Shown here in pieces: positions 1-40,499 of a stretch of 64,000 nt of DNA. A model generated the notes under the pieces. It was not told the DNA's origin. It saw only the letters and a program-made list of their open reading frames with translations, and ran no database searches. Numbering within the stretch: position 1 is the first letter of the stretch; each line of letters starts with the position of its first letter. Made by a program: the position numbers and the translations under genes. The DNA comes from Blastocatellia bacterium (GTDB lineage Bacteria > Acidobacteriota > Blastocatellia > UBA7656): assembly GCA_963765495.1 (NCBI GenBank), contig CAVXWP010000001.1, positions 128,001 to 192,000 on the forward strand, in the 5' to 3' direction.

Positions 1-3000
1 GCGGGCGGCGTATCGGCCCAGTAATAGACGTGCCCTGACAGCAGTGACGTCCCCGGCCCGTCCGTCAGCGCCGACCCGGCTATTAGCTGCGGCGTGATGA
101 GCGTGCGCGTCCCGTCTACTTCGCGGTAGATCTTGAAGCCAAGGTTGTCTGCCTCAAAGCCGGTCTGCCACCTGAGCAGCACTTGATTGCCGTAGCCATT
201 TGCCGTGAAGCGTTCCAGTTTCACCAGGGTCGGGTTGCTGACTATCCCGATGTTTGTCCCCGTGAATTCCGAGGTGTTGCCGTCATTATCAGTCGCCGTG
301 GCTATTATCTTATCCCCCGGATTGATGCCGAGGCTCGCCGCATTGCCCGCGTCAAAGGTGGCGATGCCGGGGGCGCCGTTTAGGTAATCATCCGCCGTGT
401 AGTATGTGCTTGAGATATAGGTCTCCCCCTGGAGATTCTCATCGGCTTTGAAGAATTCGATGTAGAGACCGTTTCCGCCGTAGTTGGAATTATAGGTAGC
501 GGAATCTACTTTGTATTGAAGGATGAGATTGCCGCTCGTATTGATTACGGCGCTCGTGAATTCAGGATAGTTTTGCAAGCGGTTGCCACCGTCATCAGCA
601 TCTTCGGGGTCATTTGGTGTGTGCCCAGGCGTGCCGAGGTCAATGCCAAGACCGGCATTGCCAAAGATGGAATTGGGGTCGATGACGTTGCAATGTCCGG
701 CGGTTTCGTCAACCCACACGCCAGGGCCGCCGTTCTCGGAAATGATGTTGCCGGCATTGGCTTCCAGGCCGCCGATTTCGTTCAATCTCGCGCCAGCAGT
801 TACAAGAACGCCGGCTGCGCCATTCCCTTCGATCAGATTGTTTTTCAGCCGGTTGAAGGCTGCATTAACTCCATCAATCATCACGCCGATTCCTTCATTG
901 TTGGCAATCGTAGTTTTCAAACTGTCGTTGACGTCGCCAATGACCGTGCGGAGGGCATTATTGAGCGTAACCCCGATGCCATTGCCCAATCCGGGGGAGC
1001 CGTTCTCGTCGGTGCCGATTATGGAATTGTTAATGGTATTGTCCGACGGTGCATCGCCCATCACCTCGATGCCTTTTTCGGTGTTTCCAGAAATTATGTT
1101 TTTTGCCGATTCCACTACATCACCAACTAAGACATCAACTGTGTTGTCGAGTTGAATACCGACCTGATTAGGTATTGTGGTTAGCGTGCCATCATCCTGC
1201 CTGAAGACCCCAATGAGATTACCGGAGATTTGTGCTAAGATACCGCCACCAGCAGGGCCTTGGGCTCGTTGCTGATTCCCTGATCCCTGTACTTTAATTC
1301 CTACTGGATGATTACCGATGGTGTTGTCTTTTATCCATACTCTGCGGGTTTCGACACCGGGACCCGGTAATATGCAGATTAATCCTCCCTCATTATTGGG
1401 GAAATTTTGACCGCTGGGAGTAACCCCAATCCAATTATTTTGAATGATCAAATCCCCATCCGTCTGATTCTCAACGCCAATCCCGTTGACCATATTACAA
1501 TTGATGATGTTGCCATGTTTGACCGGCGGTGTAATGACTCCAACCTGGTTTGCCCCGGCCTGCACGATAAACATTCCCAGCCGATTTGGTATACAGTTAT
1601 CGGTATTTCTGTTCATCCCAATCGCATTGTCACGAAAGATATTGCCGCTCGGCAGATTGGCCGGATCAGGATTGTTACTCAGCGTTCCTAAAAAGATGCC
1701 ATAGCCGAACGCGTCATCCGTATGACCGGAAATCGTGTTTCCGAAACCGCCGAGCCGACTGCCGTCACAACTGCCAATGCAATTGTCCTTGGCAAATTCG
1801 CCAACAATCAACCCGATCTTGCCATTCGGAACCGCCGTCTCTCCTGCGGTGTCGATGCCGATGCGATTATCAATCAGCTTATTGTCTGTTGTCGTCAGGT
1901 CAGCCCCGTTAGGCGGCGGTTGCACGCCATCTCCAAGGAAGACGCCGAGAATGACGCCGAACAAGGTATTTCCCGACACCGTGTTGGTCTGGATTTGGTT
2001 ATGGCTCGCCCCTTTGAGTAGTATGCCGATAGTGTTTGGGATGGCTACCGCTGAAGAGTTTTCCAGTAGCCCTACGTCATTTAAGCGAATCTGGTTCTGG
2101 CTTGGCCCGACTGTCGTATCGGTGGCGACAAGATATATGCCTACGGGTGAGTATCCGACCGTATTATATTGAATAGTCGTTGTGGTCACTTGCCCCTGCA
2201 AAAAGATCCCATTCAAGCCATTGCCGAGATTGGTTCCACTGCTCCCGACTCTGGTTCCAATCTTATTGCCTTCAATATAATTCCCCTCGACGACAGTGTT
2301 TGGTGAACCGGCCGGCACAGTCAGGTAAATTCCGTTCTCCTGATTGCCGCCGATGACATTCGGATAACCGCCGTTGCCTTTGCCGATCCATTGTCTGTCG
2401 GCAAAACAAACGACGCCATTTCGATTCGCAATAGGATTGCTGGCATCTCTGTTGACGCCAATGAAATTCGTGGCGACGAAATTTTGGACGCCTGCCGTGG
2501 CATCAATTAAAATACCGGCAGAATTTGCGGAATTATTGTGTCCCGAAATGATGTTGCGCGTGTTGACGCCAAATATCGCGTTGCCAAGGGTATTCAGGGT
2601 CGCACCGTTGCGAATATAGACGCCGTATTGCCCGTTTCCCAAATCCTCCATGCCGTTATCTTTGGTGCCGATGTAATTGCCGCTTATGTTGTTCCCAGTT
2701 GAAGAATTGTCCAGAACAATACCGTTATTACTATTTCCCGAAATGACATTGCCGTCCACATCTATGGTTTGTCCAATGGTATTGGTATTTGAACCTGAAA
2801 GCAGGATGCCAGTCTGGTTGGCTAAAGCAATCATGCCGGTCTTATCGGTGCCGATTTTGTTGTTGAAGATTTCATTCGACGCGCCGCCAATAATTGAAAT
2901 CCCGTTGACGTTATTTGAAATAGTATTGCCGAGACTTGATTCTGTGTCGCCAATCGTATTATAGCTGCTGCTATTGAGGAGAATGCCCGAGGACATTTGA

Positions 3001-6000: not shown

Positions 6001-7612
6001 GCGTCTTTATTCAGGCGCAGCGGCAAAACGGCGACTGGATTCGTTTCGGCATCAAGTGAGACAAGTGCGGTTCCCTGGTTCTGGTTTTCTTTCTTTGCCT
6101 GCGCGACGATATGAATTTGCTTTGAAACTGAATCAACCAGAATCAAATCATCTCTACCTGAAACGGAAACTCGAGCTTTGATAAGTTTTTGCGCATTTTG
6201 CGACTTTGCTGCATTAACAAGATGCCAATCGGTTATTAAGTTTACGAGATTCCACCTGGCAAGCGTGGAGGGCCTGCTCGAAATTGAGCTGATAAAAGCC
6301 GCTTTCGAGCGTAGTCGATTTTCTTCCGCTTTCGCCATGCCTTCACTCGTCAGTTCAGATTGTTCTTCTTTGCTTAACTCTTTGAACTTCTTCGCCTCCT
6401 CTTCGGCTTTTTTGCTCAAAAACTCCTGTCTCTCTTTTGGTGAAAGCCTCGAATCAATCATCATCAAGCCGCGCTCTTTTGCCGTTGCCTCGTCAACAAT
6501 CGGCTCATTGGCAGGCACAGCATAACTATTCGTGTCGACACCGGTTGGAATAAAAGAATTTTTTTTGAGATGCTGTCTGGCTTCTTTCGAAAAAGAGTTG
6601 GTTGAAATTTTGCTGCTTCGCACGGGTTCGAGAATGGAAATGCTTCCCGAGTCAGACAAAATCGCCAGATCGTCTCCCCGTTCGTCGTTGAAATCTCCAA
6701 CAACCAGACCTGACATCTGAAAAGGCATTTTTCGAGTGGCGACAACCGCCTTCGGTCTTTCAATATCGAATCTTTTATCAATATCCCACGGGTAAGCCTG
6801 TCCGCGACCGTGAATAATCGTCAATTGATCCCCGCAGGCGACGGCTATGTCTCCATAATAATCATCGTCCAGATTCCCGATTGCGATGTCGACAGCTGGC
6901 GCTGGAAGTGCCAAGACTTCCGGCTTCTGTTTGAACGCCCCTTCGGGATGCTCAAAAACCACAAGCTGTGAACTCTTCCCGTTTTCTACGGCCACGGCCA
7001 CATCGCTCTGCCCATCGGCACGGCCTATTTCTCCTACCCCCAGTGCCGTCATTTTTCCCGGCAGCAGTATCGTCGCGGGAGCCGCAAAATTCCCCCTCCC
7101 GTCGCCTGTGAGCAGTTGCAATCGATTGTCGCCTTTCGCTGCCGCCAATACATCTTTCCTGCCATCGCCATTGAAATCTCCGACCACGAGATAGTCCGGC
7201 CTCAGCCCCAGAGGGAATGTCTTTTCCGTCGCATAAAATGGAGAATCGAGGAACGTGCCCTCGGCTTTGTGCCTTTTGGCTTGCGGCGAATTGGGAAACA
7301 TCGAATCCAGATTGCCCCGATAGAACTTCAATGTGCCATCAGCGTCGGCGGTCACGAGGTCTGCTACGCCGTCGGAATCGAAATCCGCCGAGGCCAGTAG
7401 CGATGGCTCGCTCGCGCTCGTCTCTTGATTGGCTGCCGTGCCTGATTGCAGGGAGAGATCCTTGCCGTCTTTGAAGTTGATATAAGGCGCTCCCCGCCCT
7501 TCGGCTTTGATGGTGGTCCTGCCTGGCGTCTCGGTCGATTTATCTGCCCCCTGTTTCTTTTCTCCGGATTCAGAAACCGTCGCGGCGGATTCCGAAGGCT
7601 GCCCAATACCAG
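1..7612 (-). CDS. Giant secreted FG-GAP/CSLREA/parallel beta-helix protein, copy 1, main part; runs off the window start towards the expected C25 domain
   Basis: Absent from the ORF track because no stop occurs before base 1. The frame at ~7300 and at ~200 is the same when mapped onto copy 2 (offsets 20416 and 20858). It encodes FG-GAP motifs, CTLRGAI and CTLRAAI motifs, GNxIG beta-helix repeats and NPTLVKLERFTA...WQTGFEADNLGF as in copy 2. Confidence 0.8.
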
Positions 7613-8368
7613 GGGGGGGCTGTTGTTCGCTTCGGTTTTGGCTTCGCCAGAAGCCTCCGGGTTGCCGCTTGCAGTAAGCATTGCGCTGACATGAGGCGCG
7701 TCTGTACCGCCGGTCGTCAAGGCAGATTGATTGCTGCTGGCGACCCTCGCTTCGGTGCGAGTCTCAGCCAGATGGGCGGTATGATCTGACGGTTGTGGAG
7801 CCTTGTTCCAGCCTTGTGTGAAGACGCCGATTGGGGGCTTCCTGGAGAGAGAGACCACCCGTGGTGCGATAGCGAATACGTTACGGGTTGCTGCTAGCAA
7901 GCCTGTGCCGCTCGGCTTGCCCGCATGTTCGCTGGCAGCAACGGTTCTGGTGCTGCGCGCCGTTTCGCCGCGAGCAATCGCGCTGTAGTCCGGTACGTGA
8001 TTGGCTGTCAGTTTGGGAATGGGATGTAAGATGAACGAACGAGAGCCGCGCAGAGCAACGACCGTACCTCTCGGTGCGTCGCTCTTGTGATTGTCAAGAC
8101 GGCCCGGCAACATAATCACCCGTCCCGCAATATTTATCTCGCCGGTGCGCAGCGGCGTTTCCTCAAGCGGCGAGGCGGGCAATTGATACGTCTCGCCGCC
8201 TGTGTTCTTTCGACCCCTCCCCGCACCACTCATCACTAATGCGGTGCCGTCATCAGTAGACGCTGCGGCACGAGATTGAGGCGGCAAGGCGCTGCTTATA
8301 AGGCAGAGCGTGAGCATCAAGGCAAAGATGAAGCGCAGTCTTCGGTGGTAGTAATCTGATGGCAGCAT
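7364..8368 (-). CDS. N-terminal part of the giant protein, copy 1, separated by a 1-base deletion in a G8 tract at 7612-7619
   Basis: Near-identical to the copy-2 N-terminus, with a signal-like hydrophobic stretch (FIFALMLTLCLISSA). Copy 1 has GGGGGGGG where copy 2 has GGCGGGGGG. GAGG lies upstream of the ATG at 8368. Confidence 0.75.
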   Translation of the reverse strand: MLPSDYYHRRLRFIFALMLTLCLISSALPPQSRAAASTDDGTALVMSGAGRGRKNTGGETYQLPASPLEETPLRTGEINIAGRVIMLPGRLDNHKSDAPRGTVVALRGSRSFILHPIPKLTANHVPDYSAIARGETARSTRTVAASEHAGKPSGTGLLAATRNVFAIAPRVVSLSRKPPIGVFTQGWNKAPQPSDHTAHLAETRTEARVASSNQSALTTGGTDAPHVSAMLTASGNPEASGEAKTEANNSPPLVLGSLRNPPRRFLNPEKRNRGQINRPRRQAGPPSKPKGGERLISTSKTARISPCNQARQPIKRRARASHRYWPRRISIPTA

Positions 8369-8420
8369 TGGGCATTCCTCATTCGATCTGCGGACCAGAT
8401 GCATCTTCAGATCGATATAG

Positions 8421-11400
8421 TTAATTTACTCCACACAAACAGGAGTTATTTCTGGTGTCTCGGTCAGCGATTGTGCATCGCAAAGTACCGGGAGGCGATT
8501 GCAAGCTGGCATTGCCTCGATGCTGAGTGCCTACATAATATGCCAGGACGCGGCGCTCGGGGGTGTAGTGTTGCAGATTCCAGATGGTGCCTTTTGAGGT
8601 TATCGTTCCTCTCCCGGTGTAGGTTGTGCCCCCGCAACAAAAACGATAATCGCCCGTCCTCGTGTTAAACAACAGCACGGTCCCTGCATTGCCGTCATCC
8701 TGCAAACAGACATCAAAGGTCGTGACGGTGAAGTTGCAGGTTGCGGTGTTGCCGGAACTGTCTGTCGCCGTACAAGTCACCGTCGTCGTCCCTAACGGAA
8801 AACAACTCCCCGATGGCGGATTGCACGTCACGGTTACTCCCGGACAATTATCGCTCGCCACAGGCGCGGGATAGTTGACCACCACGCAGGACGAACTCTG
8901 ATTCGGGGATACCGCTGTGAGGTCTGCCGGACACGTAATCAGGGGCGACTGTGTGTCGGCGATGGTTATTGTGAAGGCGCAACTGGGGCCTGCGGTGGTT
9001 GTGCAGGTCACTGTGGTCGTGCCTTTCGGGAAGAACGAACCCGAAGCCGGAGAACAGGTAACCGTGCCGCATCCGGCTGAGGTGGTCGGAGCCGGATAGC
9101 TCACCACTGCGCCGCATTGACCCGGATCATTGCTCCTGGTGATATCCGTCGGGCAGGTGATGGTGCAGGCTTGCTGCGTAACCGTCACCGTGAAGCTGCA
9201 AGTGGCGGTGTTCTTCGAGGCATCGGTAGCCGTGCAGGTGACCGTCGTTGTGCCTGTAGGGAAACAAGTGCCAGAAGGTGGTGAGCAATTGACCGTAGCG
9301 CCCGGACAGTTGTCATTGGCAGCCGGGGTTGTGTAGTTGACGACGGCGCACTTCTGAGTCGATTGAACATTGACATTTATGTCTGCCGGGCAAGTCAGGT
9401 TGGGCGGGGTGTCGTCAACCACGGTTACCGTAAACGAGCAACCCGGCCCTGTTTTAGTCGCGCAGGTGACGGTTGTTGTGCCGACGGGGAAGAAGGAGCC
9501 GGAAGCGGGCAAGCAACTCGCCGAGCCGCAGTCCCCGGTTGTTGTTGGCGCGGGATAGTTGACCACCGCGCCACACTGAGTCGCGCCGGGGCCGGTGTTG
9601 GCGGTCTGATTAGGCGGACAGGTAGTCGAGCAGTCTATCTCGAAAGCGCCGATGTCAGAGCCGTTGCCGCCCACAGCGTTCGCAATCGTCGGGTCATCAA
9701 CGGGACGAGGGAAGCCGCGCTGGTCAGTAGTGATGGGCGTTGCGGTGATCGGGTCGATGGCGGCAGCGCCTTTATCAATGGCGGGGCTGCCTGCGAGAAG
9801 CGCCAGGGTTTGAGTTGGGCCGCCGTTATCGGCGAGCGGGCCAAGCAACGGATTGATGGGCGAGGCATTGGTGCCGATCTGGTCGCCAGTCATCGGAACG
9901 ATGGTCGCGTCTCTATTATTGCCGATCAGGTTCCAGCCCTGCGAGATGAGCGTGCCTTTGAAATCGGGACCGAGAGTTGCCGTGTTCCCGGCGATAATGG
10001 AATCTTTAGCGGTGACACTGCCACCGTCAAGACTATTAAAATCGACGCCGCCGCCGCTGCATTCTCCGGTGGCACCACCGTTATAGCCAATAACATCGGT
10101 GGCCGTATTACCGAATATGGTGCTATTGGTAAGATACATCTGGCCGCTATTGGAGATACCACCGCCACCGCCAAAGGAAATACCAATTCCCTGGACATTG
10201 TTTAAGGGCGTAAATTGGTAAAGGATCGATTTCGATAAGTTGCCCGTTACGGTGCTGTTTGTGAGATTCAGAATTCCGCCATTGGCAATGCCGCCACCTG
10301 AGCTACAAGTCGAAAAAAAGTTTTGGTTTGAAGTTCCTGTGATCTTACCGCTGTCCGCAATATTGCCTGAGATCGTACTGTTCGTGACATTCAACGTCCC
10401 GGTGTTGAAGATTCCGCCCGCCGCCGCGCCGGAAAGAAATACAGTGGCACCGCCGCCGGGACCGGGTGAGGCAGCCAATACAATATCGCCGTTCTTGGCG
10501 GTGTTATCCGAGATCGTGCTGTTCGTCAAATTCACCGTCCCGCTGGCATTGTGGATGCCTCCACCGGTGGCAGTGCCAGCTTCTGTGCCATTAGTGGTAG
10601 AGGCACCCAGGGCTGAATTCCCGGAGATGATGCTGTTGACAATATTCACAGTTCCCGTGCTTCGGTTATTGATGGCACCGCCGAGACCTTGAAAGCCCTG
10701 AACGTTATTGTTCGTACTGATTGCCTGATTTCCCGTGAGTATAGTGCTGCTCAAACTCAATGTGCCCGTACTGTCATTGAGAATGCCGCCGCCGAAGCCG
10801 TCGCCTCCGCCAGGAGGTCCCTCCGGTCCACGATGCACGCCATTGGCAATCGTCAAACCTGAGATTGCTACATCGTAATTGCCCGCCGCAACGTTGAAGA
10901 TGCGCGAACTGTTATTGCCGCTCACGGTGATGAAGCTCGCACCGGGGCCGACGATATTCACGCTGTCAAAGATCACCATTTCGCCGCTGGTCAGCGTGAT
11001 CGTTCCCGTAACGCCTGCCGCAAAGGTAATGGTTTGCGTTCCCGGCGTTAAATTAGAGCAGATGACCGCTTCGCGCAGGCTGCCCGCACCGCTGTCATTT
11101 GTGTTGGTGACGAGCGTCGAGCACGCAACGTTCTGCGCTTCAAAGGCGCCGATGTCAGAGCCGTTGCCGCCCGACGCGTTCGCAATCGCCGGGTCGTCAA
11201 CAGGACGAGTGAAGCCGCGCTGATCGGTAGTGATGGGCGTTGCGGTGATCGGGTCGATGGCGGCAGCGCCTTTATCTATCGCCGGGCTGCCTGCGAGAAG
11301 CGCCAGGGTATGCGTCGGGCCGCCGTTATCGGCCAGTGGGCCAAGCAGCGGATTAATGGGCGAGGCATCCGTGCCGATCTGATCGGCGGTGCATCGGAGC

Positions 11401-12770: not shown

Positions 12771-12898
12771 GATAGACCCCTTATATCTCTGTGTTGTGGA
12801 CTCTGGCCGGTTTGTAATTGCCGGATGATTACACGCTAAAACTTTCCATCCACCGCACCTTCGACTTAGATCGCGGTTCAATTCAATCCCGCCAAGTT

Positions 12899-14731: not shown

Positions 14732-14786
14732 CTCAAAGCTCCTTTTCAATGCGCACACAGGCCATAAAGTCTCAGATTTTGTTCTC

Positions 14787-14828
14787 TCACTTATACATGC
14801 GATAAATCGCGACGGTTTACCCCATCGC
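14787..14828 (-). promoter_or_regulatory. Conserved 42-bp upstream motif, candidate ECF promoter
   Basis: GCGATGGGGTAA-N8-GATTTATCGCATG...GTGA on the - strand. Identical at 36906-36947 and 32/42 identical without gaps at 33623-33664. Confidence 0.55.
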
Positions 14829-14831
14829 TCA

Positions 14832-14903
14832 AGCCCTGAAGGATTATCGCTACTGTTACCCAGCGCGTTGCGCTGGGCTATTGAATTGCGCCCCTTCGGG
14901 GCT
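14832..14903. repeat. REP-like palindromic element
   Basis: Outer arms AGCCCTGAAGG...CCTTCGGGGCT with inner hairpin CCCAGCGC-GTT-GCGCTGGG; repeated at 36951-37022. Confidence 0.6.
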
Positions 14904-15064
14904 TTTGTGGTCTTTTCAAACGCCCTCTGATCGCTGAGTACGCGGAGACAGATTATTTTCTCGACACTTCAAACTTCTCACTCAGCGCTCAGCGCTCGGC
15001 GCTCCCCTGTGATATAATCGCCCTCAATCTTTTGCGATATTTTGGGCTTGGGTTTAGCGATAAG

Positions 15065-18221: not shown

Positions 18222-18227
18222 CTTTTT

Positions 18228-18589: not shown

Positions 18590-18597
18590 GCTCACTT

Positions 18598-28785: not shown

Positions 28786-28837
28786 TGGGCATTCCTCATT
28801 CGATCTGCGGACCAGATGCATCTTCAGATCGATATAG

Positions 28838-30091: not shown

Positions 30092-30513
30092 GCGTTCGCA
30101 ATCGTCGGGTCATCAACAGGACGAGGGAAGCCGCGCTGGTCAGTAGTGATGGGCGTTGCGGTGATCGGGTCGATGGCGGCAGCTCCTTTGTCTATTGCCG
30201 GGCTGCCCGCAAGCAGCGCCAGGGTCATCGTCGGGCCGCCGTTATCGGCCAGTGGGCCAAGCAACGGGTCAATCGGCATGGCATCCGTGCCGATCTGATC
30301 GCCAGTCATCGGAACGATGGTCGCGTCCTTATTATTGCCGATCAGGTTCCAGCCCTGCGAAGTGAGTGTGCCGTCAAAGTCGGGGCCAACGTCAGCGGTA
30401 TTTGTGGCGATGATGGTGTTCTTGGCCGTCACCGTGGCGTCATTATGAATGCCGCCGCCATTACCTGTGCTGCTCGGGCCGCCCATTGAAGGACGGCGTG
30501 CCGACCGCAGCAT
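30052..30513 (-). CDS. Middle fragment (choice-of-anchor Q) of the CSLREA protein, copy 2
   Basis: GWNLIG...LGPLADNGGPT...DQRG; bounded by frameshifts at ~30484 and ~30091. Confidence 0.7.
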   Translation of the reverse strand: MLRSARRPSMGGPSSTGNGGGIHNDATVTAKNTIIATNTADVGPDFDGTLTSQGWNLIGNNKDATIVPMTGDQIGTDAMPIDPLLGPLADNGGPTMTLALLAGSPAIDKGAAAIDPITATPITTDQRGFPRPVDDPTIANAWAATALTSALSR

Positions 30514-33346
30514 TCCCGGAGAACGTGCTGTTTGTGAGTATCAACTGACCGCCGTTGGAAATGCCTCCCCCAAGGCTGAAGAGCGGGACCACTGTCACTG
30601 CGGAGATGCCGCTGATCGTGAGGCCGTTGGCTGAATTGCCGAAGAAGGTGCTATTGGTAATACGCACAGTCCCTGTGTTATTGCTAATACCTCCCCCAAT
30701 GCCACCAGTAGCGATATAAATATTACCATCATTGACATTGTAAACGCCCCCGTTCGCAGAATTACCGGATACTGTACTGTTGGTGATATTTACATTTCCC
30801 GATGCATTACTGAGACCGGCCCCGGATGATCCCACGACGAATAGGCCGCCGCCGCCGCTGTTGCTTCCCGCAGTTACGGTGTCGCCGTTGGTGGCTGTGT
30901 TTCCAGCGATCGTGCAGTCAGTCAAATTCACCGTACCGTTCGTGTTGGCAATACCACCTCCGGAACTCGTGCCGGCAACTCGGGCCTGATTGAGCACATT
31001 CCCGCTGTTGCCCTTGCCACCTCTCACAACATTTTCGGAGATGACGCTATTCGTAATATTAAGAGTTCCACCGTTTGCATTATAAATGCCGCCGCCAATG
31101 CCTTGAGCAGCCTCAGTTCTGCCATTGAGAACACTATCGCCGCCGGCGGCGAAATTGCCGGAGATCACGACATTGTTGATGGCGAGCGTGCCAGTGCTGT
31201 TGTTGAGAATGCCGCCGCCTGTGCCGTTGGTCGGAGTCGCACTGTTGATACCCCGATTCAAGCCGTTCGCGATCGTCAAGCCCGAGATCGAGACGTCGTA
31301 ATTACCCGGCGCAATATTAAATATACGCGAGGCATTGTTGCCGCTGACGGTCAGTACGCCCGCACCGGGGCCGACGATATTCACGCTGTCAAAGATCACC
31401 ATTTCGCCGCTGGTCAGCGTGATCGTTCCCGTAACGCCTGCGGCAAAGGTAATGGTTTGTGTGCCCGGCGTTAAATTGGAGCAGATTACCGCTTCGCGCA
31501 GGCTGCCCGCACCGCTGTCATTTGTGCTGGTGACGACCGTCGAGCACGCAGCGTTCTGCGCTTCAAAGGCGCCGATGTCAGAGCCGTTGCCACCCGTCGC
31601 GTTCGCAATCGCCGGGTTGTCAACAGGACGAGGGAAGCCGCGCTGGTCAGTAGTGATGGGCATTCCCGAAATGGGATCAGTAGCGGCGGCTCCTTTGTCT
31701 ATCGCAGGGCTGCCTGCGAGCAGTGCCAGGGTCATCGTCGGGCCGCCGTTATCGGCCAGTGGTCCGAGAAGAGGATCGATCGGCATCGCATCCGTTCCGA
31801 TCTGGTCACCAGTCGTCGGCGTGATCGTCGCATCCTTACTATTGCCGATCAGGTTCCAGCCCTGCGAGATGAGCGTGCCTTTGAAATCAGGGCCGAGGCC
31901 GTCGGCGGGTACGTTGTTGCCGGAAATGATGGTGTCTTTCGCATTTACGGTACCGGCAGAAGTGAGATTGTCAACGCCTCCGCCCTCGCCGGTACCGGCA
32001 GTAGCGCACCCCGAGGCCGTGCCCCCAGCAGCCGAGTTACCGAAGATCGTACTGTTCGTGAGATTAACGATACCTTCACCGTTTAAAATGCCGCCGCCTC
32101 TGCTTGTGACGCCAACTACCGTGCCGAACAGAGTGCCTGTGCTAACCGAATTTCCAAAGACCGTGCTATTCGTGATATTCAATGTTCCGGTAAAATTGCT
32201 GATACCGCCGCCAAAGCTGCCTGTAACAGTTATCACGTTACCAGCGTCAGGTTCCCCCTGAATGCCGCCATTGGCTGAGTTGCCGGAAACAGTACAGCTA
32301 TTGATATTAATAGTTCCGCTTCCGTTATTGATCGCGCCACCGGTGGCTCCGGTTTGCAATCCCGTGCCGCCGCCGCCAGGCGTGCAGTTGACACCGCCCG
32401 ATCCAGCGTGTTGGGTGTCGCCCAGGGCGGATGAGTTCCCGGTGAGCGTGCTATTGGTAAGCGTTACCGTCCCAACGGTGTTGGAAATTGCGCCGCCACC
32501 GCTGCCGCCCCCAAGATTGCCCGGATCGCCGCTGTTGTTTATGGCACTGCCTCCCTTTGCAGCGTTTCCCGAGAAGGTGGTATTCATTATTTTCACATTA
32601 CCGGTACTCTCGTTATAGAGGCCCGCCCCGTCGCCATAACCACCCTTCCCAGCACCCAACCCGCCAACGCCGTCGCCGATGCCAGCGTTGCCGCCGGTGG
32701 CGGTGTTGCCGGAGAGCGTGCTGCCTGTGATAATGAGCGTACCGGTGCTTCGGTTGTAAATAGCGCCGCCGCGGCCATAACCACCAATGGATATCTGGGC
32801 ATTCCCGCCGGTCGCGGCATTGTTCGATAGGACGCTGTTGATAATGTTGAGCGTACCGGTGCTGTCATTGAGAATTCCACCGCCAAAGCCCGGTTCCCCG
32901 GCAGGGTTACCATCTGCTCCGCGATTCAGTCCGTTAGCAATCGTCAAACCGGAGATCGTGACGTTGATCGCAGGTATCACGCCGCCAATATTGAACACCC
33001 GCACCGCGTTGTTGCCGCTGATGGCGAGCAGGCTTGCGCCCGGCCCTTGAATCTGGAGGTCCTTGTCTATCGCCAGTTCGCTCGCAAGCGTGATCGGACT
33101 TGTCACCGTCGTCATATCGAAGTCAATCGTATCGCCCGGCGCTGCCGTGGCTATCGCTTGCCGCAATGTGCAGTCGGCTCCCGGACAGGTTCCGCCCGCA
33201 TCGGCGCTGCTGTGTACCGTTATCGTCGCCGCTGGCGTCTTCTGGACCACGCTTCCTGCGACAGGAACCGTGACCGGCGTGAGCAACATTGCGAGCGCGA
33301 TGCCTCCCAACAGCGCGGCGATTGTAATTCTCTTATTGGATTTCAT
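30461..33346 (-). CDS. Secreted CSLREA / choice-of-anchor Q protein, copy 2, N-terminal part
   Basis: Same signal peptide and first domain as 8421-12770; two beta-helix modules; GGAGG RBS. Confidence 0.85.
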   Translation of the reverse strand: MKSNKRITIAALLGGIALAMLLTPVTVPVAGSVVQKTPAATITVHSSADAGGTCPGADCTLRQAIATAAPGDTIDFDMTTVTSPITLASELAIDKDLQIQGPGASLLAISGNNAVRVFNIGGVIPAINVTISGLTIANGLNRGADGNPAGEPGFGGGILNDSTGTLNIINSVLSNNAATGGNAQISIGGYGRGGAIYNRSTGTLIITGSTLSGNTATGGNAGIGDGVGGLGAGKGGYGDGAGLYNESTGNVKIMNTTFSGNAAKGGSAINNSGDPGNLGGGSGGGAISNTVGTVTLTNSTLTGNSSALGDTQHAGSGGVNCTPGGGGTGLQTGATGGAINNGSGTININSCTVSGNSANGGIQGEPDAGNVITVTGSFGGGISNFTGTLNITNSTVFGNSVSTGTLFGTVVGVTSRGGGILNGEGIVNLTNSTIFGNSAAGGTASGCATAGTGEGGGVDNLTSAGTVNAKDTIISGNNVPADGLGPDFKGTLISQGWNLIGNSKDATITPTTGDQIGTDAMPIDPLLGPLADNGGPTMTLALLAGSPAIDKGAAATDPISGMPITTDQRGFPRPVDNPAIANATGGNGSDIGAFEAQNAACSTVVTSTNDSGAGSLREAVICSNLTPGTQTITFAAGVTGTITLTSGEMVIFDSVNIVGPGAGVLTVSGNNASRIFNIAPGNYDVSISGLTIANGLNRGINSATPTNGTGGGILNNSTGTLAINNVVISGNFAAGGDSVLNGRTEAAQGIGGGIYNANGGTLNITNSVISENVVRGGKGNSGNVLNQARVAGTSSGGGIANTNGTVNLTDCTIAGNTATNGDTVTAGSNSGGGGLFVVGSSGAGLSNASGNVNITNSTVSGNSANGGVYNVNDGNIYIATGGIGGGISNNTGTVRITNSTFFGNSANGLTISGISAVTVVPLFSLGGGISNGGQLILTNSTFSGNAAVGTPSFNGRPEQHR

Positions 33347-33740: not shown

Positions 33741-34112
33741 ATGAGAGCCGTTATGAATGAGCTTGAAACAAACTTCGAGGCACCCTTCACCATCACCGAG
33801 CATGGCACGATTAGAATTGCGGGATCGCGCGTTAGCCTTGATATGGTCATTCACCCTTACAAGCTCGGCGCGACCGCCGAACAGATCGCCTACTGCTTCC
33901 TGTCTCTGAGTCTGGCAGACATTTATCCGGCAATCGCTTACCACCTGACTCACCGCGAGGAGGTTGAAGAGTACCTGCGCAGGCAAGAGGCCGTAGCCGA
34001 CGCGCTTCTACAGCAAATCGAATCCGATCCGAAGCGCCGGCAGAGGATCACTGAACTGCGCGAGCGCATTTTAGCCCGCCGGAGGAATCAGCATGAGCCA
34101 ACCCTACATTGA
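33741..34112 (+). CDS. DUF433 domain protein (antitoxin-like)
   Basis: IRIAGSRVSLD.VI..YKLGATAEQI...F.SLSLADIY.AIAY; the start may be 33753. Confidence 0.85.
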   Translation: MRAVMNELETNFEAPFTITEHGTIRIAGSRVSLDMVIHPYKLGATAEQIAYCFLSLSLADIYPAIAYHLTHREEVEEYLRRQEAVADALLQQIESDPKRRQRITELRERILARRRNQHEPTLH

Positions 34113-34410
34113 GCAACGCGACGGCGGATACTGGATTCAAGGGACGCGCGTATCACTCGATTCAGTAGTCTACAGGTGGCTCGAAGGACTGTCTCCCGAA
34201 ACCATCGCCGACTGCTTCCCCGCGCTGACGCTGGAGCAGGTCTACGGCGCGGTCGCTTACTATCTGGCCCACCGCGACGAGGTTGACGCCTACCTCAAAT
34301 CCGCCGACGAGGAATATGAACAGTTCCGCCAGCGCGTGCGCACAAAGTATCCTCGCCTGAGCAGCAGGCTCGATGAGTTGCTCAACACCTCTGAGGCAAC
34401 CAGGCGATGA
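34093..34410 (+). CDS. DUF433 domain protein (antitoxin-like)
   Basis: IQGTRVSLDSVVY.WLEGLSPETI..CFPALTLEQVYGAVAYYL. Confidence 0.88.
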   Translation: MSQPYIEQRDGGYWIQGTRVSLDSVVYRWLEGLSPETIADCFPALTLEQVYGAVAYYLAHRDEVDAYLKSADEEYEQFRQRVRTKYPRLSSRLDELLNTSEATRR

Positions 34411-34757
34411 AGATTCGGTTCCAGGCCGATAACGACCTCGACCATCGCATCATTGCCGCGACCAGGCGGCTCGACCCGGCAATAGATTTTCAAACAGCGA
34501 CAGCCCTCGGACTTCACACCGGAGTGCCCGACGACCAAGTGCTGGCCCTTGCCGCCCAGCAAGGCCGAATCCTGGTGACGCATGACCGGAAAACGATGCC
34601 TGACCACTTCGAGCTTTTCGTCGTCTCACACACGTCGCCGGGGCTGATTATCCTCTCGCAAGCCCTCCCCATCGGACGCGCCGCCGAGTGGCTGCACCTG
34701 ATCTGGGCCGCCTCCGAGGCCGAAGAATACATCAACTCCATTTACAGCCTGCCCTAA
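34407..34757 (+). CDS. DUF5615 PIN-like toxin (VapC45-like)
   Basis: IRFQADNDL...PDDQVL..AAQQGRILVTHDRKT...PGLII; ATGA overlap with the upstream DUF433 gene. Confidence 0.85.
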   Translation: MKIRFQADNDLDHRIIAATRRLDPAIDFQTATALGLHTGVPDDQVLALAAQQGRILVTHDRKTMPDHFELFVVSHTSPGLIILSQALPIGRAAEWLHLIWAASEAEEYINSIYSLP

Positions 34758-34762
34758 AATGT

Positions 34763-34888: not shown

Positions 34889-35017
34889 TTTATCCTCCTC
34901 TATCTGTGCGTTGTGGACTCTGGCCGGTTTGCAATTGCCGGATGATCACTCGCTTAAACTTTCCATTTACCGCATTCCTTCGACTTAGATCGCGGTTCAA
35001 TTCAATCCTGCCCGGTT

Positions 35018-36850
35018 TCACTGCACGACGACCGTGAGCGTAGCGGTGCGCGTCTTGCCCGAATTGTCTGTGCCGGTGAAGACCAGATCATAAGTCCCTG
35101 GTGACGCCGAGCCTTTCACCTTCACCTTGAAGGTCGCGCTCGAAGTTGTGTTGACCGGATTGGCAGGTTTGACCTTCAGGCCCTTGGGCGAGGCCGGAGG
35201 CGTTATCGTCACATTACCGGAAAACCCACCTGTGCCGTTTATGGTGATCTTCGGTTTCGCCTTATTGCCTCGCGCCACCGTCACCATCGGTTGATCGAAC
35301 GATAATGTGAAGTCAGATTCGACCGTGCCCGTTATCGTGACAAATTGGGCCTTCGAATCCATCGCGTTGCCATTCGTCACGTAGACCAGTGCCGGTCCCG
35401 ACATGTTGGGCATCTTCGCGGTGATTTGGGTCGTTGACTCGGACCAGTTTATCGAGCCGTCCTGGATGTGATAAATCTTGTCGCCCTGAATCACAGACAC
35501 CACGTTCCCAATCACTGAGAAGTTAGTCCCTGAAATCTTCATGGTCGTGTTCGGATGCAGGTTCTGGGTTCCATGATCGGGCCCTGTGTCGTCGTTGAGA
35601 ATTCCGCCCTGATTGATCTCAGGACAGTTGCCGGGTATGACGGGGTTCTGTCCCTTTATCAATGCCTCAAGCGTTGTCCCAAGAGTCGTGATTTCCCCAT
35701 CGCTTCCTCTAAACAGTCCCCAACTGTTTTGCGGAGGCGGAGCATTGTCGATCACCTGCCAGAAAATGGCGTAGGATGCGCCGAAGGAGCCGGGACCTAT
35801 GACCGCATTGACCAGTTCCTTTGTGTAACTTGCCGCGTTGCACTCTCCATAATCGGTGCGGGCGAATCCGAACTCTCCAAGCAGAAACGACGCAGGCTCC
35901 ACATTGCTCTGGCCCTGGAACTTCACCTGTCCGGTCTTTACGAGATTGAGGCTTCCGCCCAATACGAAGTTGATCGCCTGCTTCAGGTCCACCTGAGGCT
36001 GGCTGACTTTGAGGCCGATTGTCTGCCAGGAAGAATATGAAAAATAGTCCACGTCGTGAACGCGCGGCGCGACGTAATCGATTACGCAGCGGTTGGCAAG
36101 CGAAGGCTGATTGCCCGGTCCTCCGAACGGTGTGCCTCCGCAGGGTTCACCGCCCGGCGCAACCACGTAGTTGAATTCTATTCCGAAGAAGACGTTGTTT
36201 ACTCCGGCGGCCTTCGCCATTGCGACGCCGTCCGCCCTCGACTGTTGCCAGTTCACGTAATTGTCCCAGACTGCCGGATCATTGTTCACGCCGAGCGCGC
36301 CCTGCACAGCGTTATCGCCTTCCCAGTTGAGTATGATGAAGGTCTTCGACGGGTATGTGTTGAAGAGGTATTCGCACAGGTTTTCGATCTGAGTGCGCTC
36401 TACATCATAAGCGGATGATGAGGGATCGAAGCCGTTTACCCATGTTGGAAGACTCTGATCGGCAGGCCCGTCGGCAGGCGTGTAAGTAGTCAGCAGGTAT
36501 GTCCGAAAACTGTCGGAACCAAAGAGCGTCTCGTAAGCGGAACTGGAAGCGACCTTGACAAGCCAGTTCGGATCATCGTCCTTTTTTATGGATGGATTGA
36601 CCATATAAGGGTCTCTGGCCGATATGGCGACACGGATGGTACGAGTGCCCATCTCGGCGATCTTTTCAGCCGCCCAGTTCAGTCTGTCGGTGGAAGAGTC
36701 ATAAGAAGAGTAGTCGACTCCCCAGTTATAAATGCCGATCATATCGGCCACATCGGTCGGGCGAGGCGGCACAGCGCGCGTGATTGGCGCGATCAGCAGG
36801 GCGACGGCGAAGAACGCCATAAATGAAAGCAGTCTGAATTTGTTGGACAT
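35018..36850 (-). CDS. Secreted GH-like/IPT protein, copy 2
   Basis: Same length as 12899-14731 and nearly identical to it. Confidence 0.65.
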   Translation of the reverse strand: MSNKFRLLSFMAFFAVALLIAPITRAVPPRPTDVADMIGIYNWGVDYSSYDSSTDRLNWAAEKIAEMGTRTIRVAISARDPYMVNPSIKKDDDPNWLVKVASSSAYETLFGSDSFRTYLLTTYTPADGPADQSLPTWVNGFDPSSSAYDVERTQIENLCEYLFNTYPSKTFIILNWEGDNAVQGALGVNNDPAVWDNYVNWQQSRADGVAMAKAAGVNNVFFGIEFNYVVAPGGEPCGGTPFGGPGNQPSLANRCVIDYVAPRVHDVDYFSYSSWQTIGLKVSQPQVDLKQAINFVLGGSLNLVKTGQVKFQGQSNVEPASFLLGEFGFARTDYGECNAASYTKELVNAVIGPGSFGASYAIFWQVIDNAPPPQNSWGLFRGSDGEITTLGTTLEALIKGQNPVIPGNCPEINQGGILNDDTGPDHGTQNLHPNTTMKISGTNFSVIGNVVSVIQGDKIYHIQDGSINWSESTTQITAKMPNMSGPALVYVTNGNAMDSKAQFVTITGTVESDFTLSFDQPMVTVARGNKAKPKITINGTGGFSGNVTITPPASPKGLKVKPANPVNTTSSATFKVKVKGSASPGTYDLVFTGTDNSGKTRTATLTVVVQ

Positions 36851-36905
36851 CTCAAAGCTCCTTTTCAATGCGCACACAGGCCATAAAGTCTCAGATTTTG
36901 TTCTC

Positions 36906-36947
36906 TCACTTATACATGCGATAAATCGCGACGGTTTACCCCATCGC
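36906..36947 (-). promoter_or_regulatory. 42-bp motif, candidate ECF promoter, copy 2
   Basis: Identical to 14787-14828. Confidence 0.55.
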
Positions 36948-36950
36948 TCA

Positions 36951-37022
36951 AGCCCTGAAGGATTATCGCTACTGTTACCCAGCGCGTTGCGCTGGGCTAT
37001 TGAATTGCGCCCCTTCGGGGCT
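36951..37022. repeat. REP-like palindromic element, copy 2
   Basis: Identical to 14832-14903. Confidence 0.6.
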
Positions 37023-37183
37023 TTTGTGGTCTTTTCAAACGCCCGCTGATCGCTGAGTACGCGGAGACAGATTATTTTCTCGACACTTCAAACTTCTCAC
37101 TCATCGCTCAGCGCTCGGCGCTCCCCTGTGATATAATCGCCCTCAATCTTTTGCGATATTTCGGGCTTGGGTTTAGCGATAAG

Positions 37184-37759
37184 ATGGAGGTCTCATCGAA
37201 AATTACAGAACTCCTCGTCGACTGGCGCAACGGTCGCTCCAACGCTTTCGATCAACTCTTCGCGCTCGTATACGACGAACTGCGAGCACTGGCTTCCGGC
37301 TATATGCGCCGCGAGCGCCCCGACCACACCCTGCAAACGACGGCGCTGGTCAACGAGGCGTACGTGAAGCTTGTTGGCCATAAAGACAGGCTGCTGGAAA
37401 ATCGCCTGCACTTTTTCGCAGTCGCGGCGAAAGTCATGCGGCAAATCCTCATCGACCACGCGCGCACGCGCCACTACGAGAAGCGCGGCGGCAAGGCGGT
37501 GAAGATTTCGCTCGATGAGGTCGTCATCATATCGGACGAGCGCGCCGCCGATTTAATAGTGCTTGACGACGCACTCAAATCATTAGCCGCTATTGACGAG
37601 CGCAAGAGTCAGGTCGTCGAACTGCGTTTCTTTGGCGGCATGACGATTGAAGAGACCGCCGAGTTCCTGAGCGTGTCCTTCAACACGGTGGTGCGCGATT
37701 GGGAGATGGCGCGCGCATGGCTTTACCGCAACATCTACGGAGATGGCGATGCAGGCTGA
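37184..37759 (+). CDS. ECF sigma factor, EcfK-like, copy 2
   Basis: Same motifs as copy 1, including HTLQTTALVNEAY. Confidence 0.92.
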   Translation: MEVSSKITELLVDWRNGRSNAFDQLFALVYDELRALASGYMRRERPDHTLQTTALVNEAYVKLVGHKDRLLENRLHFFAVAAKVMRQILIDHARTRHYEKRGGKAVKISLDEVVIISDERAADLIVLDDALKSLAAIDERKSQVVELRFFGGMTIEETAEFLSVSFNTVVRDWEMARAWLYRNIYGDGDAG

Positions 37760-40499
37760 ACTCTGGCAGCGAATCGAAGAGGTCTTTAGCGCGGCGCTCG
37801 ACGTTGCGGATGATGAGCGCGGCACGTTCCTTGTAGAGGCATGCGGCAGCGACGAGCCATTGCGTCGAGAAGTCGAGGCTTTGCTCGCGTCGCACAAACG
37901 CGCGGGCGATTTCATTCTAGCACCGGTCTTTGAAGTGGCTCTCAATCTTATCGAGCACTCCGAGGCCGCACTCGAAAAAGGCCGTAGAATTGGCCCTTAC
38001 GAGGTCGTCCGTGAAATTGGGCGAGGCGGCATGGGAACAGTCTATCTGGCCGCGCGCGCAGACGACGAGTACAGGAAGCAGGTCGCCATCAAGGTTATCA
38101 AGCGCGGCATGGATTCGGATGACATCCTGCGGCGGTTCCGCAACGAGCGGCAGATTCTCGCAAGCCTCGACCATCCGAACATTGCCCGGCTGCTGGACGG
38201 CGGCACGACCGAGGAGGGCTTGCCTTATTTTGTGCTTGAGTATATTGACGGTGCGCCCTTTGACAGGTATTGCGACGAGCACAGACTGCCGACATTGGAG
38301 CGCTTGCAACTCTTCCGCAGAGTTTGCGAGGCGGTGCAATATGCACATCAAAACCTTATCGTCCATCGGGACCTGAAACCGAGCAACATCCTGGTCACAT
38401 CCGAAGGTGAGCCGAAATTACTCGACTTTGGGATTGCCAAACTCCTCGATCCCGATTTGATCGAAGAGGTCTCCGCGCAAACGGAGACCTCCATGCGCCT
38501 GATGACGCGGGATTACGCCAGCCCCGAACAGGTTCGCGGCCATCGCGTGACTACGGCGACAGATATTTACAGTCTGGGGGTGGTGCTTTACGAAGCGCTG
38601 ACGGGTGTCCGCCCTTACAAGTCCAACCCTGCGTCGCCGGACGGTCCATCACAGGCAAGTCCCGAATCCGAGCCGTCAAAGCCAAGCGACGCGATTGCGG
38701 ATTCAGGATCACGGCGTGCGGGCTCCACGATCTCATCTTCAAATCCGCAATCCGGTATCCACAATCCGAAACTGCTCAGAGGAGATCTGGACAACATCGT
38801 TTTGATGGCGCTGCGAAAAGAACCGCAACGCCGATACGGCTCCGCGGCAGAGTTCTCGGCGGATATTCAAAGATATCTCGACGGGCTTCCAGTCATGGCC
38901 CGCAAGGATACTTTACAATATCGCCTGAGCAAGTTTGTCCTGCGTAATCGTGTTGCCGTGGCGGCGGCTGTGCTCATCCTCCTGACCGTGGTGGTTGGCG
39001 TCGCGATGACAGTTCGGGAAAAACGCAAAGCCGACAGAAGGTTCAGTGAGGTGCGACATCTGGCCAACTCACTCATATTCGAAGTGGATGACGAAATCCA
39101 GAAAGGGCCCACGAAGGGTCGCGCTATGATCGCCAAAAGGGCGCTGGAGTATCTCGACAATCTGGCTCGGGAGTCGGGCAACGAGTACGGGCTGCAACTT
39201 GAACTGGCCGCCGGGTACCTCAAGATCGGAGATATTCAGGGCAAGCCGTATCGGCCAAATCTGGGTGACACTGCCGGCGCGGAGGCGAGCTATCGCAAAG
39301 CAAAGGCGATTCTGGAATCACTGACCGCCGTTGAGCCGACCGACCTCGAAGCACAGCGTTATTTGAGCCTGAGTTATCAGAGCTTAGGCCGCGTACAGCA
39401 GCGCAATGGCGATTGGAACTCAGCGTTGGAAAGCGAGCGGAAGGCGGTGGCAGTCAGTGAGGCCTTGCTCGCTGCGAATCCGAGCAGCCTGCAATATCGC
39501 AATCTGCTGGCAGATAACTACCTGCATTTTGGCGAAGCCCTGTACCTGACAGGAAGAGAGACAGCAATCGCCGACCATCATCAGGCAATCGAGTACTTCC
39601 GCAAAGCGCTGGTGATTCACGCAAGTCTTGCCTTGGCAGAGCCGGACAAGGGTGAATATCGCTATGCCGCAGGAGTGGATTATGAATATGTGGGAATCGC
39701 TTTCAATCGGCTTGGCGATATGACGGGTGACGTCGAGAATTATCGCGCGGCGCTTGAGAATCATCGCAAAGAGCTTGAAATCAACGAAGCACTGGCCGCC
39801 TCGGATCCTTCAAATGCGGCCTACCGGCGCATCGTCGCCGATGTCTACGGCGAGGTCGGATTGTCGCAGCTGAAGCTCGGGCGGCCTGCCGAAGCATTAG
39901 AGAACCTGCGCCACAGGTTGGCTATTTTTGAATCGATAAGAACATCCGACCCGACCAATGTCGAAGCCCGGCGCGACGTGGCCAACTCTATGGCCGATCT
40001 TGGCCAGGCAATGGCGCAGAAGGGCGACCTGTCCGGAGGGTTGGCGCAGGAGCGCAAAGCCGTGGCGATCCTGCAAGCGTTGAGCGAAGCCGAACCTGCG
40101 AACACGGAGACGCGCAACACTCTGCGGTTTTCGTACGAAGCAAGCGGCGAGATGGAAGAAAAGATCGGCGATTACGCGGCGGCGCTGGGGACTTATCAGA
40201 AAGCCCTGGCCCTGCTTGAATCGTGGGCGTGCATCGAACCCGAGATTGTGCTGGTCCGTCGCCTGCTCGCAATCGAAAACGCGAACATCGCACGTGTGCA
40301 TGAAACAGCCGCAGCAGATCGAAAGTCATCAATTAATATACAAAAAGCGCATTGGCGAGCGGCCAAAGAGCGGTATCAACGCAGCCTCACCACTTGGCGG
40401 GATTTACAGGCAAAGGGCCAACTCAGTGAGGCAGACGAAATTGCCGTTACCGAACTCACGAAAGCCATTGCGAAATGCGACCTGGCTCTATCAAAATGA
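37743..40499 (+). CDS. Membrane Ser/Thr protein kinase with TPR repeats, copy 2 (different TPR region)
   Basis: IGRGGMGTVY, HRDLKPSNIL, DFG, YASPEQ; TM helix; RRFSEVRHLANSLIFE-type extracytoplasmic TPR region. Confidence 0.92.
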   Translation: MAMQAELWQRIEEVFSAALDVADDERGTFLVEACGSDEPLRREVEALLASHKRAGDFILAPVFEVALNLIEHSEAALEKGRRIGPYEVVREIGRGGMGTVYLAARADDEYRKQVAIKVIKRGMDSDDILRRFRNERQILASLDHPNIARLLDGGTTEEGLPYFVLEYIDGAPFDRYCDEHRLPTLERLQLFRRVCEAVQYAHQNLIVHRDLKPSNILVTSEGEPKLLDFGIAKLLDPDLIEEVSAQTETSMRLMTRDYASPEQVRGHRVTTATDIYSLGVVLYEALTGVRPYKSNPASPDGPSQASPESEPSKPSDAIADSGSRRAGSTISSSNPQSGIHNPKLLRGDLDNIVLMALRKEPQRRYGSAAEFSADIQRYLDGLPVMARKDTLQYRLSKFVLRNRVAVAAAVLILLTVVVGVAMTVREKRKADRRFSEVRHLANSLIFEVDDEIQKGPTKGRAMIAKRALEYLDNLARESGNEYGLQLELAAGYLKIGDIQGKPYRPNLGDTAGAEASYRKAKAILESLTAVEPTDLEAQRYLSLSYQSLGRVQQRNGDWNSALESERKAVAVSEALLAANPSSLQYRNLLADNYLHFGEALYLTGRETAIADHHQAIEYFRKALVIHASLALAEPDKGEYRYAAGVDYEYVGIAFNRLGDMTGDVENYRAALENHRKELEINEALAASDPSNAAYRRIVADVYGEVGLSQLKLGRPAEALENLRHRLAIFESIRTSDPTNVEARRDVANSMADLGQAMAQKGDLSGGLAQERKAVAILQALSEAEPANTETRNTLRFSYEASGEMEEKIGDYAAALGTYQKALALLESWACIEPEIVLVRRLLAIENANIARVHETAAADRKSSINIQKAHWRAAKERYQRSLTTWRDLQAKGQLSEADEIAVTELTKAIAKCDLALSK

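Follow-up and report, generated by a model that had tools for sequence, protein, structure and literature searches.

The window analysed here is a 64,000-nucleotide stretch (C1:128001-192000) of contig CAVXWP010000001.1, designated C1, from the genome of a soil acidobacterium of the class Blastocatellia (assembly GCA_963765495.1; 7.3 Mb, 17 contigs, 97.9% complete). It carries two tandem modules, in each of which a gene pair encoding an extracytoplasmic function (ECF) sigma factor of group ECF43 and a Hanks-type Ser/Thr kinase is located head-to-head with genes for large exported proteins. Plain positions refer to the window and negative positions lie 5′ of its start; the source genome is designated G000, the relatives searched have G-numbers and the loci compared have L-numbers.

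Organisation of the two modules

The gene layout was established from a listing of open reading frames (ORFs), combined with Pfam and NCBIfam scans. The minus strand of each copy contains, in the same order, (i) a C25 peptidase part, (ii) a giant FG-GAP/CSLREA/beta-helix gene, (iii) a gene for a CSLREA-type/choice-of-anchor-Q protein with three HYR domains and (iv) a gene for a protein of 610-619 aa. Divergent from these output genes, the plus strand carries an ECF sigma gene and, behind it, a gene encoding a kinase with a Pkinase domain and tetratricopeptide repeats (TPR). Self-comparison with blastn aligned 6721-9971 with 27137-30387 (97.4% identity, offset 20,416), 12784-16471 with 34901-38590 (87.2%, offset 22,117) and -2267..617 with 18590-21475 (93.2%, offset 20,857). 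The blastn alignments and the ORF listing thus confirm the claim of an earlier note, made from the sequence alone, that two tandem copies share one gene order at offsets of 20.4-22.1 kb. Its domain assignments (ECF, Pkinase with TPR, three HYR, choice-of-anchor Q, FG-GAP, Beta_helix and CSLREA) also hold, and the C25 domain that it saw in copy 2 and expected beyond the window edge in copy 1 is indeed found there, at C1:125747-126748. The gene order of the proposed five-gene layout stands, but a supposed separate 346-aa gene (7364-8404) proved to be the N-terminal part of giant 1, which a 1-nt deletion separates from the main frame.

The two sigma factors (sigma 1, 15065..15640; sigma 2, 37184..37759; both plus strand) are 89% identical and match PF07638 with E values of 7e-57 and 9e-56, respectively; TIGR02999, with which only sigma 1 was scanned, gave 230 bits, above its cut-off of 126. 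Their region 4.2 helix is identical and a single residue differs in the region 2.3-2.4 stretch. Both contain, within region 2.2, the sequence LQTTALVNE reported in the earlier note, which aligns with the QTTA consensus; the pattern Q-x-T/S-A is present in all 14 ECF43 genes aligned from the source genome and three relatives. According to the accessible text of PMC13147305, ECF43 members have the consensus QTTA where region 2.2 otherwise contains the acidic DxxD, and a co-encoded Hanks kinase is a hallmark of the group. In both copies the kinase ORF begins within the end of the sigma gene, with an overlap of 17 nt, and the scan of neighbouring ORFs revealed no anti-sigma domain.

Kinase 1 (15624..18221, plus strand) begins with an N-terminal extension and a kinase domain, after which a single membrane helix (residues ~411-437) leads to a TPR sensor; in kinase 2 (37743..40499, plus strand) the helix lies at ~398-426 and is followed by TPR families. 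The Pkinase matches (E 6e-48 and 4e-47) include the HRDLKPSN and DFG motifs and are preceded by an extension of ~85 aa. The kinases are 55% identical over the first 503 aa, which form the cytoplasmic half, and their sensor halves show no significant similarity to each other (best E 0.23). ECF43 genes are numerous in Acidobacteriota, with up to 26 in a relative. The source genome has nine strong PF07638 genes, eight of them with a kinase gene directly downstream and the ninth followed by insertion-sequence genes; a kinase gene also directly follows all five ECF43 genes of the related ECF43/C25 loci described below. A 2,015-aa frame combining ECF43 with a Hanks kinase/TPR region (L032:7826-13873, G013 contig C82) may be a natural sigma-kinase fusion, or may have lost a stop codon in assembly.

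Both sigma factors are typical members of ECF43; phosphorylation-dependent activity is predicted for them, by a type of mechanism that is already known. The proposal of the earlier note that these are kinase-paired sigma factors of the EcfK/PknS and EcfP/PknT type agrees with every ECF43 feature that could be checked (the motif, the overlapping Hanks kinase gene and the lack of an anti-sigma domain). In the accessible texts, EcfK/PknS of Xanthomonas citri share with the window pairs a QTTA-type motif in place of DxxD (PMC13147305, PMC8999054), and PknS shares the arrangement of N-terminal extension, kinase domain, single membrane helix and periplasmic TPR (PMC13147305). EcfK/PknS are encoded in a type VI secretion system (T6SS) cluster (PMC8999054), and the window pairs likewise lie beside envelope- or secretion-related genes. 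They differ from EcfK/PknS in that their neighbours are giant exported proteins and not a T6SS, in that there are two pairs with unrelated sensors, and in being known from sequence alone. The accessible part of PMC8999054 also describes EcfP of Vibrio parahaemolyticus as an intrinsically inactive sigma factor, phosphorylated by PknT at the second Thr of the STTA/QTTA motif (STTA in EcfP), and ECF43 members as missing the DAED motif; the same residues are present in both window sigmas.

The output gene closest to each sigma gene encodes a secreted glycosidase-like protein. The copy 1 protein (12899..14731, minus strand; 610 aa) and that of copy 2 (35018..36850, minus strand) are 96% identical (595/619 residues, long ORFs). 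The 610-aa protein has no Pfam or NCBIfam match. Its AlphaFold2 model (pLDDT 82, pTM 0.79) comprises a TIM barrel and a beta-sandwich, and the top Foldseek matches are PslG, GH158, GH5 and GH2 enzymes (E 1e-9 to 8e-12). The best fold match is PslG of Pseudomonas aeruginosa (PDB 4zn2, 5bx9; E 8e-12, target TM 0.50-0.53), which has the same barrel and beta-sandwich at 12-13% sequence identity and differs by lacking the C-terminal Ig-like domain found here. We therefore predict, from this best fold match, a PslG-like glycosidase of clan GH-A. Two Glu residues that are candidates for the catalytic pair expected on strands 4 and 7, E177 (in WE) and E326 (in GEFG), are invariant in 50 sequences of glycosidase homologues, as read from the sequences and not from superposition on a solved active site. 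The Ig-like domain (12899-13210, the last ~100 aa) has no matching Pfam or NCBIfam model and occurs at the C-terminus of many unrelated frames of 500-1,500 aa in 26 of 40 relatives. We considered it as a substrate tag for C25 and rejected this idea, as two relatives (G033 and G037) have nine and eight matches, nearly all confined to the domain, yet have no C25 gene.

The next gene of copy 1 (8421..12770, minus strand) is intact and encodes the secreted CSLREA-type/choice-of-anchor Q/3x HYR protein, with a likely start at MKSNK (~1,449 aa); the 1,493-aa ORF matches choice_anch_Q (NF041518, E 8e-41) and HYR (PF02494, E 3e-34). CSLREA (TIGR04214) was detected in giant 2 (E 9e-11) and giant 1 (E 5e-7), and the HYR proteins contain the variants CTLRQA and GSLREA. 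Giant 1 is divided into an N-terminal piece (7364..8404, minus strand; 346-aa ORF encoding a signal peptide and the first part of the FG-GAP region), whose DNA is 97% identical to the N-terminus of giant 2, and a main frame (1..7355, minus strand) with CSLREA and beta-helix regions. The latter continues without a stop past the window edge into a PorU-like C25 module ending at C1:125741, so that giant and module form a single open frame of 3,204 aa from a GTG at 7355, or of ~3,550 aa if the intervening frameshift is read through. The break is caused by a G8 homopolymer (7612..7619), which is one base shorter in copy 1 than in copy 2, where the sequence is GGCGGGGGG. This is one of 3 among 185 G/C runs of at least 7 nt in the genome at which a 1-nt indel would extend a frame by at least 120 codons.

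The output side of copy 2 is partly degraded, with a split between giant and C25 gene, a broken HYR gene and an inserted cassette. Giant 2 (21616..28821, minus strand; 2,401 aa) has a signal peptide, FG-GAP, CSLREA and beta-helix/NosD domains, and its N-terminal 780 residues resemble FG-GAP/VCBS clusters. It ends in a unique 44-aa tail (stop at 21616), at the point where giant 1 runs on into the C25 module. The module is here a stand-alone gene (18598..21529, minus strand), opening at a GTG after an 86-nt spacer behind giant 2; an additional nucleotide at 20312, relative to copy 1, splits it into ORFs of 549 and 568 aa, which retain the His and Cys motifs. The HYR gene of copy 2 (28838..33346, minus strand) consists of three ORFs (28838-30091, 30052-30513 and 30461-33346), owing to a 1-nt deletion at 30092 and a second shift near 30461-30513. 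Between this gene and the glycosidase gene, a 1.5-kb insertion flanked by imperfect direct repeats of 16-19 nt carries a toxin-antitoxin-like cassette (33741..34757, plus strand; DUF433, DUF433 and PIN-like DUF5615) oriented opposite to the operon. With the exception of the stand-alone C25 ORF, the output proteins carry signal peptides, in agreement with the view of the earlier note that the divergent genes encode a secreted set with adhesin-like, beta-helix, glycosidase and C25 domains.

The C25 part of copy 2 matches the full length of PF01364 (positions 2-374 of 374, E 5e-85). Its nearest solved relative is PorU (PDB 6za2, E 2.5e-15), and alignment with PorU and RgpB places its GHG and TC motifs at the catalytic His and Cys regions of the two. 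The module thus has the C25 catalytic domain with His and Cys motifs in common with PorU and the gingipains RgpB and Kgp of Porphyromonas gingivalis. The NCBIfam PorU model (NF033707) scored 247 bits, below its cut-off of 420, over profile positions 160-732 of 1,095, with a further match at 5-94. Unlike PorU, the module forms the extreme C-terminus of proteins of 1,000-3,500 aa and lacks the last third of PorU. Open frames of ~1,000-4,400 aa ending in C25 number 11 in the source genome, with a maximum of 27 among the relatives, and such modules occur in 28 of 41 genomes (the source and 40 relatives), including 20 of 24 from the same family. Since the module is so widespread in the family, it is not a module-specific enzyme, and the statement of the earlier note that the surface proteins are accompanied by their own protease is uncertain. 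Canonical type IX secretion was rejected: neither SprA nor PorV (TIGR04189, NF033710) was matched in the 97.9% complete genome, the search for SprA being weak, with a control that was silent in all control genomes. Elsewhere in the source genome (G000 C7:549000-566000), three C25-ending giants, with frames of 1,727, 2,029 and 1,925 aa, follow one another on the same strand.

Divergence of the copies, control region and genomic setting

We compared copy 1 with copy 2 using Nei-Gojobori estimates of synonymous divergence (dS) and of its ratio to non-synonymous divergence (dN/dS). The values differ strongly along the module: dS is 1.23 for the sigma genes (dN/dS 0.05), ~2.4 for the kinase domain (dN/dS 0.10), 0.26 for the C25 catalytic part (dN/dS 0.17) and 0.155 for the glycosidase genes, with 0.02 in their first 200 codons and 0.23 in the remainder. 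Nucleotide identity between the copies is 99-100% over 14132-15031 and 64-81% within the sigma and kinase genes. Between the near-identical N-terminus and the 91-97% identical C25 part, identity of the giants drops to 46% over 2,084 residues. Because divergence is mosaic, the modules did not arise by one recent duplication; of the duplicated module of the earlier note, the two copies are real and a single recent event is not. The pattern fits a history of old paralogy for the sigma and kinase genes and of gene conversion that has made the output genes and the control region alike, although the near-identical tracts may partly be polishing artefacts.

The divergent control region lies between the glycosidase and ECF genes (14732..15064 in copy 1), and the copies differ at 3 of 381 positions over the compared stretch 14700-15080. 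Near-identity continues for ~600 nt into the glycosidase gene, synonymous sites included, which argues for conversion or polishing and not for selection on a promoter. An extended -10-like element, TGnTATAAT (15010..15018, plus strand), recognised by consensus match only, is located ~45 nt before the ECF start codon and would be compatible with an inactive sigma factor that is made constitutively. Aligned with the closest related locus (L033), the control region has only one short block in common.

The same region contains a full-length match to the Rfam family Acido-Lenti-1 (RF01687; 14859..14903, plus strand), with two hairpins and a T run after the second; a second match lies in copy 2 (36978..37022, plus strand). 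In the table of Weinberg et al. (2010), the only place where it appears, Acido-Lenti-1 is entered as a likely RNA and not as cis-regulatory. The source genome has four matches, including the window pair and C8:440768-440948, and several relatives have at least 111-113, often as inverted pairs ~90-140 nt apart; no match was found in the related ECF43/C25 loci. Given this dispersal and the absence from the related loci, we rejected the idea that Acido-Lenti-1 is a regulatory RNA specific to the module; its behaviour is that of a dispersed hairpin repeat more than that of a single-copy RNA gene.

The whole region is accessory DNA. In the source genome mnmG (C1:119095-121017) and mnmE (C1:179958-181337) are 58.9 kb apart. 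These genes lie within ~1 kb of each other in four genomes of the same family (G003, G007, G008 and G013), are direct neighbours in six genomes from other families, and are separated by 2-32 kb in a further six (G004, G005, G009, G015, G032 and G033); the smallest interval in the relatives is ~0.1 kb. The variability of this interval places the modules in an insertion hotspot. Transposase remnants follow the kinase 2 gene and flank the region.

Neighbourhoods in related genomes

The earlier note had proposed to look for the neighbourhood in other genomes, and this search did not recover it: no exact counterpart of the module turned up in the 40 relatives. The catalytic domain of the glycosidase was matched in only three of them, all from other families; in the 24 same-family genomes, matches are limited to the C-terminal part of the protein. 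Searches of genome and metagenome collections with the glycosidase yielded only relatives of 22-38% identity, without the module. No ECF43, C25, HYR or giant match was found around the three homologues or the weaker homologues from the collections; one weak kinase match was present among these loci, at L037.

We also compared the ECF43 and C25 match tables of ten relatives side by side, using a threshold of 10 kb and simple Poisson expectations. Within this distance of a C25 match are 5 of 84 ECF43 genes, all in the first five genomes, and the second set of five relatives gave none (0/29). The remaining 79 ECF43 genes, and 132 of the 137 C25 matches, are more than 10 kb from any such partner. 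Adjacency in any orientation is therefore at the level of chance (5 observed vs 3.8 expected, P 0.34). The head-to-head arrangement of an ECF43/kinase pair with a C25-ending operon was found at four loci in three of the ten relatives, against 0.96 expected (Poisson P 0.017), in a test chosen post hoc. The operons at these loci encode (i) an FG-GAP/He_PIG-C25 protein of 2,115 aa (L031), (ii) a DUF5122 propeller-C25 protein (L032) and (iii) a Peptidase_S74 protein together with an Ig-C25 protein (L033 and L034).

The source genome itself has three of nine ECF43 genes within 10 kb of a C25 gene, with 0.27 expected. Another of its ECF43/kinase pairs faces, head-to-head, a transglutaminase-like protein and a 2,137-aa FG-GAP giant, and a further pair faces Peptidase_S74 fibre-like proteins. 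At L002 (G000 C8:1-20000) an ECF43 gene is located just downstream of a 2,992-aa DUF7948/SBBP/Sortilin/C25 giant, with insertion-sequence genes at the kinase position; ahead of this giant lie fragments of reverse transcriptase and two ends of group II introns. In a tree of the sigma factors the two from the window are sisters (100/100 support). A single clade of C25-adjacent sigmas is unsupported, as 7 of 11 inner branches lack support.

Upstream regions of the operons and ECF genes of six loci were searched for bipartite words (a 5-mer and a 4-mer separated by 14-19 nt); no word was present in at least four of the six loci, and shuffled sequences also gave ~0. In the literature searched, which did not extend to supplements or to the primary paper of Iyer et al. 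(2020), we found no description of an ECF43/kinase pair combined with giant and C25 genes, in line with the earlier note, whose author knew of none.

Interpretation and significance

In the explanation that we favour, with a probability of roughly 0.55, the window contains two old paralogous ECF43 pairs, each head-to-head with the exported-protein operon that it would control after phosphorylation by its kinase. Regulation of the divergent operon by the sigma factor is a plausible proposal. The sigma-kinase operon would probably be read from a housekeeping-type promoter. By their architecture, the two kinases would respond to different extracytoplasmic cues, each with its own TPR domain, and would phosphorylate the second Thr of QTTA, by analogy with family members elsewhere. 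The phosphorylated sigma factor would then drive the divergent operon, i.e. the glycosidase, the CSLREA/beta-helix/HYR protein and the FG-GAP/beta-helix giant with its C25 module. Both kinase inputs probably converge on the same promoter type, because the DNA-reading parts of the sigma factors are near-identical and the control regions are ~99% identical. The middles of the output genes would diverge, and gene conversion would prevent their ends and the control region from doing so.

Several observations weigh against this explanation. ECF43 and C25 genes adjoin each other no more often than by chance when orientation is disregarded, the second set of relatives contributed no case, and the head-to-head test was picked after the data had been seen. 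The analyses gave no bipartite word in common among the loci, no single clade of C25-adjacent sigmas and no module component of the kinds searched around the glycosidase homologues. The identity of the control regions extends into synonymous sites of the glycosidase genes, and the operon of copy 2 is interrupted, with several of its genes broken.

The chance-level adjacency in any orientation, the distance of most ECF43 and C25 genes from each other and the failure to find a shared bipartite word would be accounted for if the adjacency had no regulatory meaning, with ECF43/kinase pairs controlling other genes and both numerous families being copied together in a variable island. The other ECF43 pairs of the source genome that adjoin an ABC transporter, gyrA or small unknown genes also suit this alternative. 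It is harder to reconcile with the excess of the head-to-head layout in the relatives and with the frequency of C25 genes near ECF43 genes in the source genome. Moreover, the ECF43 members studied sit beside genes that they control, as described for EcfK and its T6SS cluster in the accessible part of PMC8999054. We consider adjacency without control possible, if somewhat unlikely.

A second alternative, which we regard as improbable, is that the output side, of copy 2 at least and possibly of both copies, consists of pseudogenes in decaying accessory DNA. The frameshifts at 7612-7619, 20312, 30092 and near 30461-30513 would be expected in this case, as would the separation of giant 2 from a C25 ORF without a signal peptide, the inserted cassette, the flanking transposase remnants and the position of the region as a 58.9-kb insertion between mnmG and mnmE. 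Against this, the dN/dS values of the sigma, kinase, glycosidase and C25 module fall within 0.05-0.17, and copy 1 is broken only once, at a homopolymer. Reads bear on one of the breaks. A search for public runs containing the sequence gave no RNA run. The single public DNA run used, from a soil metagenome, contained 47% of the sampled words at a depth of ~0-7 per bin and gave short contigs, none spanning the whole stretch; the bin 21338-22004 was uncovered, and site 7612 lay outside the stretch compared. The sole read-derived contig over 20312 (20242-20872) lacks the extra base, so this frameshift is not supported by reads; the contig has copy 2 letters at six diagnostic sites (20251-20297) and copy 1 letters afterwards. 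Homopolymer frameshifts are rare in the assembly (3/185 runs), and the breaks can therefore not simply be dismissed, yet they are undatable. Separately, a run of 497 A in the source genome (G000 C9:32828-33324) is most likely an assembly artefact.

That the copies are strain haplotypes, the possibility by which the earlier note would have been refuted, or a mis-join is very improbable: the assembly is of metagenome type, the only run is of low depth with short contigs, and polishing could partly explain the near-identical tracts, but collapsed haplotypes are ruled out by the saturating dS (1.2 for the sigma genes, ~2.4 for the kinase domain), the unrelated kinase sensors and the 46% identical giants, all far beyond strain variation, and both copies lie inside a 1.31-Mb contig without N.

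Returning to kinase-controlled pairs, a more far-reaching version would have the kinase-gated sigma preside over a recombining pair of giant-protein cassettes, in which gene conversion preserves the ends and the control region and the middles, like the kinase sensors, diversify, with the G8 tract as an on/off switch for giant 1 and the PorU-like module cleaving itself in cis, thereby linking or releasing its passenger. MARTX and large clostridial toxins offer an analogy to the C25 giants, in that a built-in clan CD cysteine peptidase (C80, not C25) cuts its own polypeptide. We regard this version as improbable; if true, giant exported proteins would sort or process themselves by a mechanism that does without type IX secretion.

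To our knowledge, ECF43 is the one ECF group shown to be activated by direct phosphorylation. The output of the Vibrio EcfP/PknT pair is reportedly a polymyxin-resistance regulon. In the literature searched, ECF43 outputs are described for two bacteria only, none of them in Acidobacteriota, and the locus is a concrete candidate for such an output. If the link is one of adjacency only, the locus is an ordinary accessory island. Coupled to exported giants that carry a PorU-like module, ECF43 would represent a variant of a known mechanism that is undescribed, plausible and weakly supported. Should it exist, the window would provide a natural experiment, in which two kinases with different sensors feed near-identical sigma factors and promoter regions. 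The large exported proteins ending in a PorU-like module constitute an unstudied and strongly expanded family in these bacteria, in which no type IX machinery was found.

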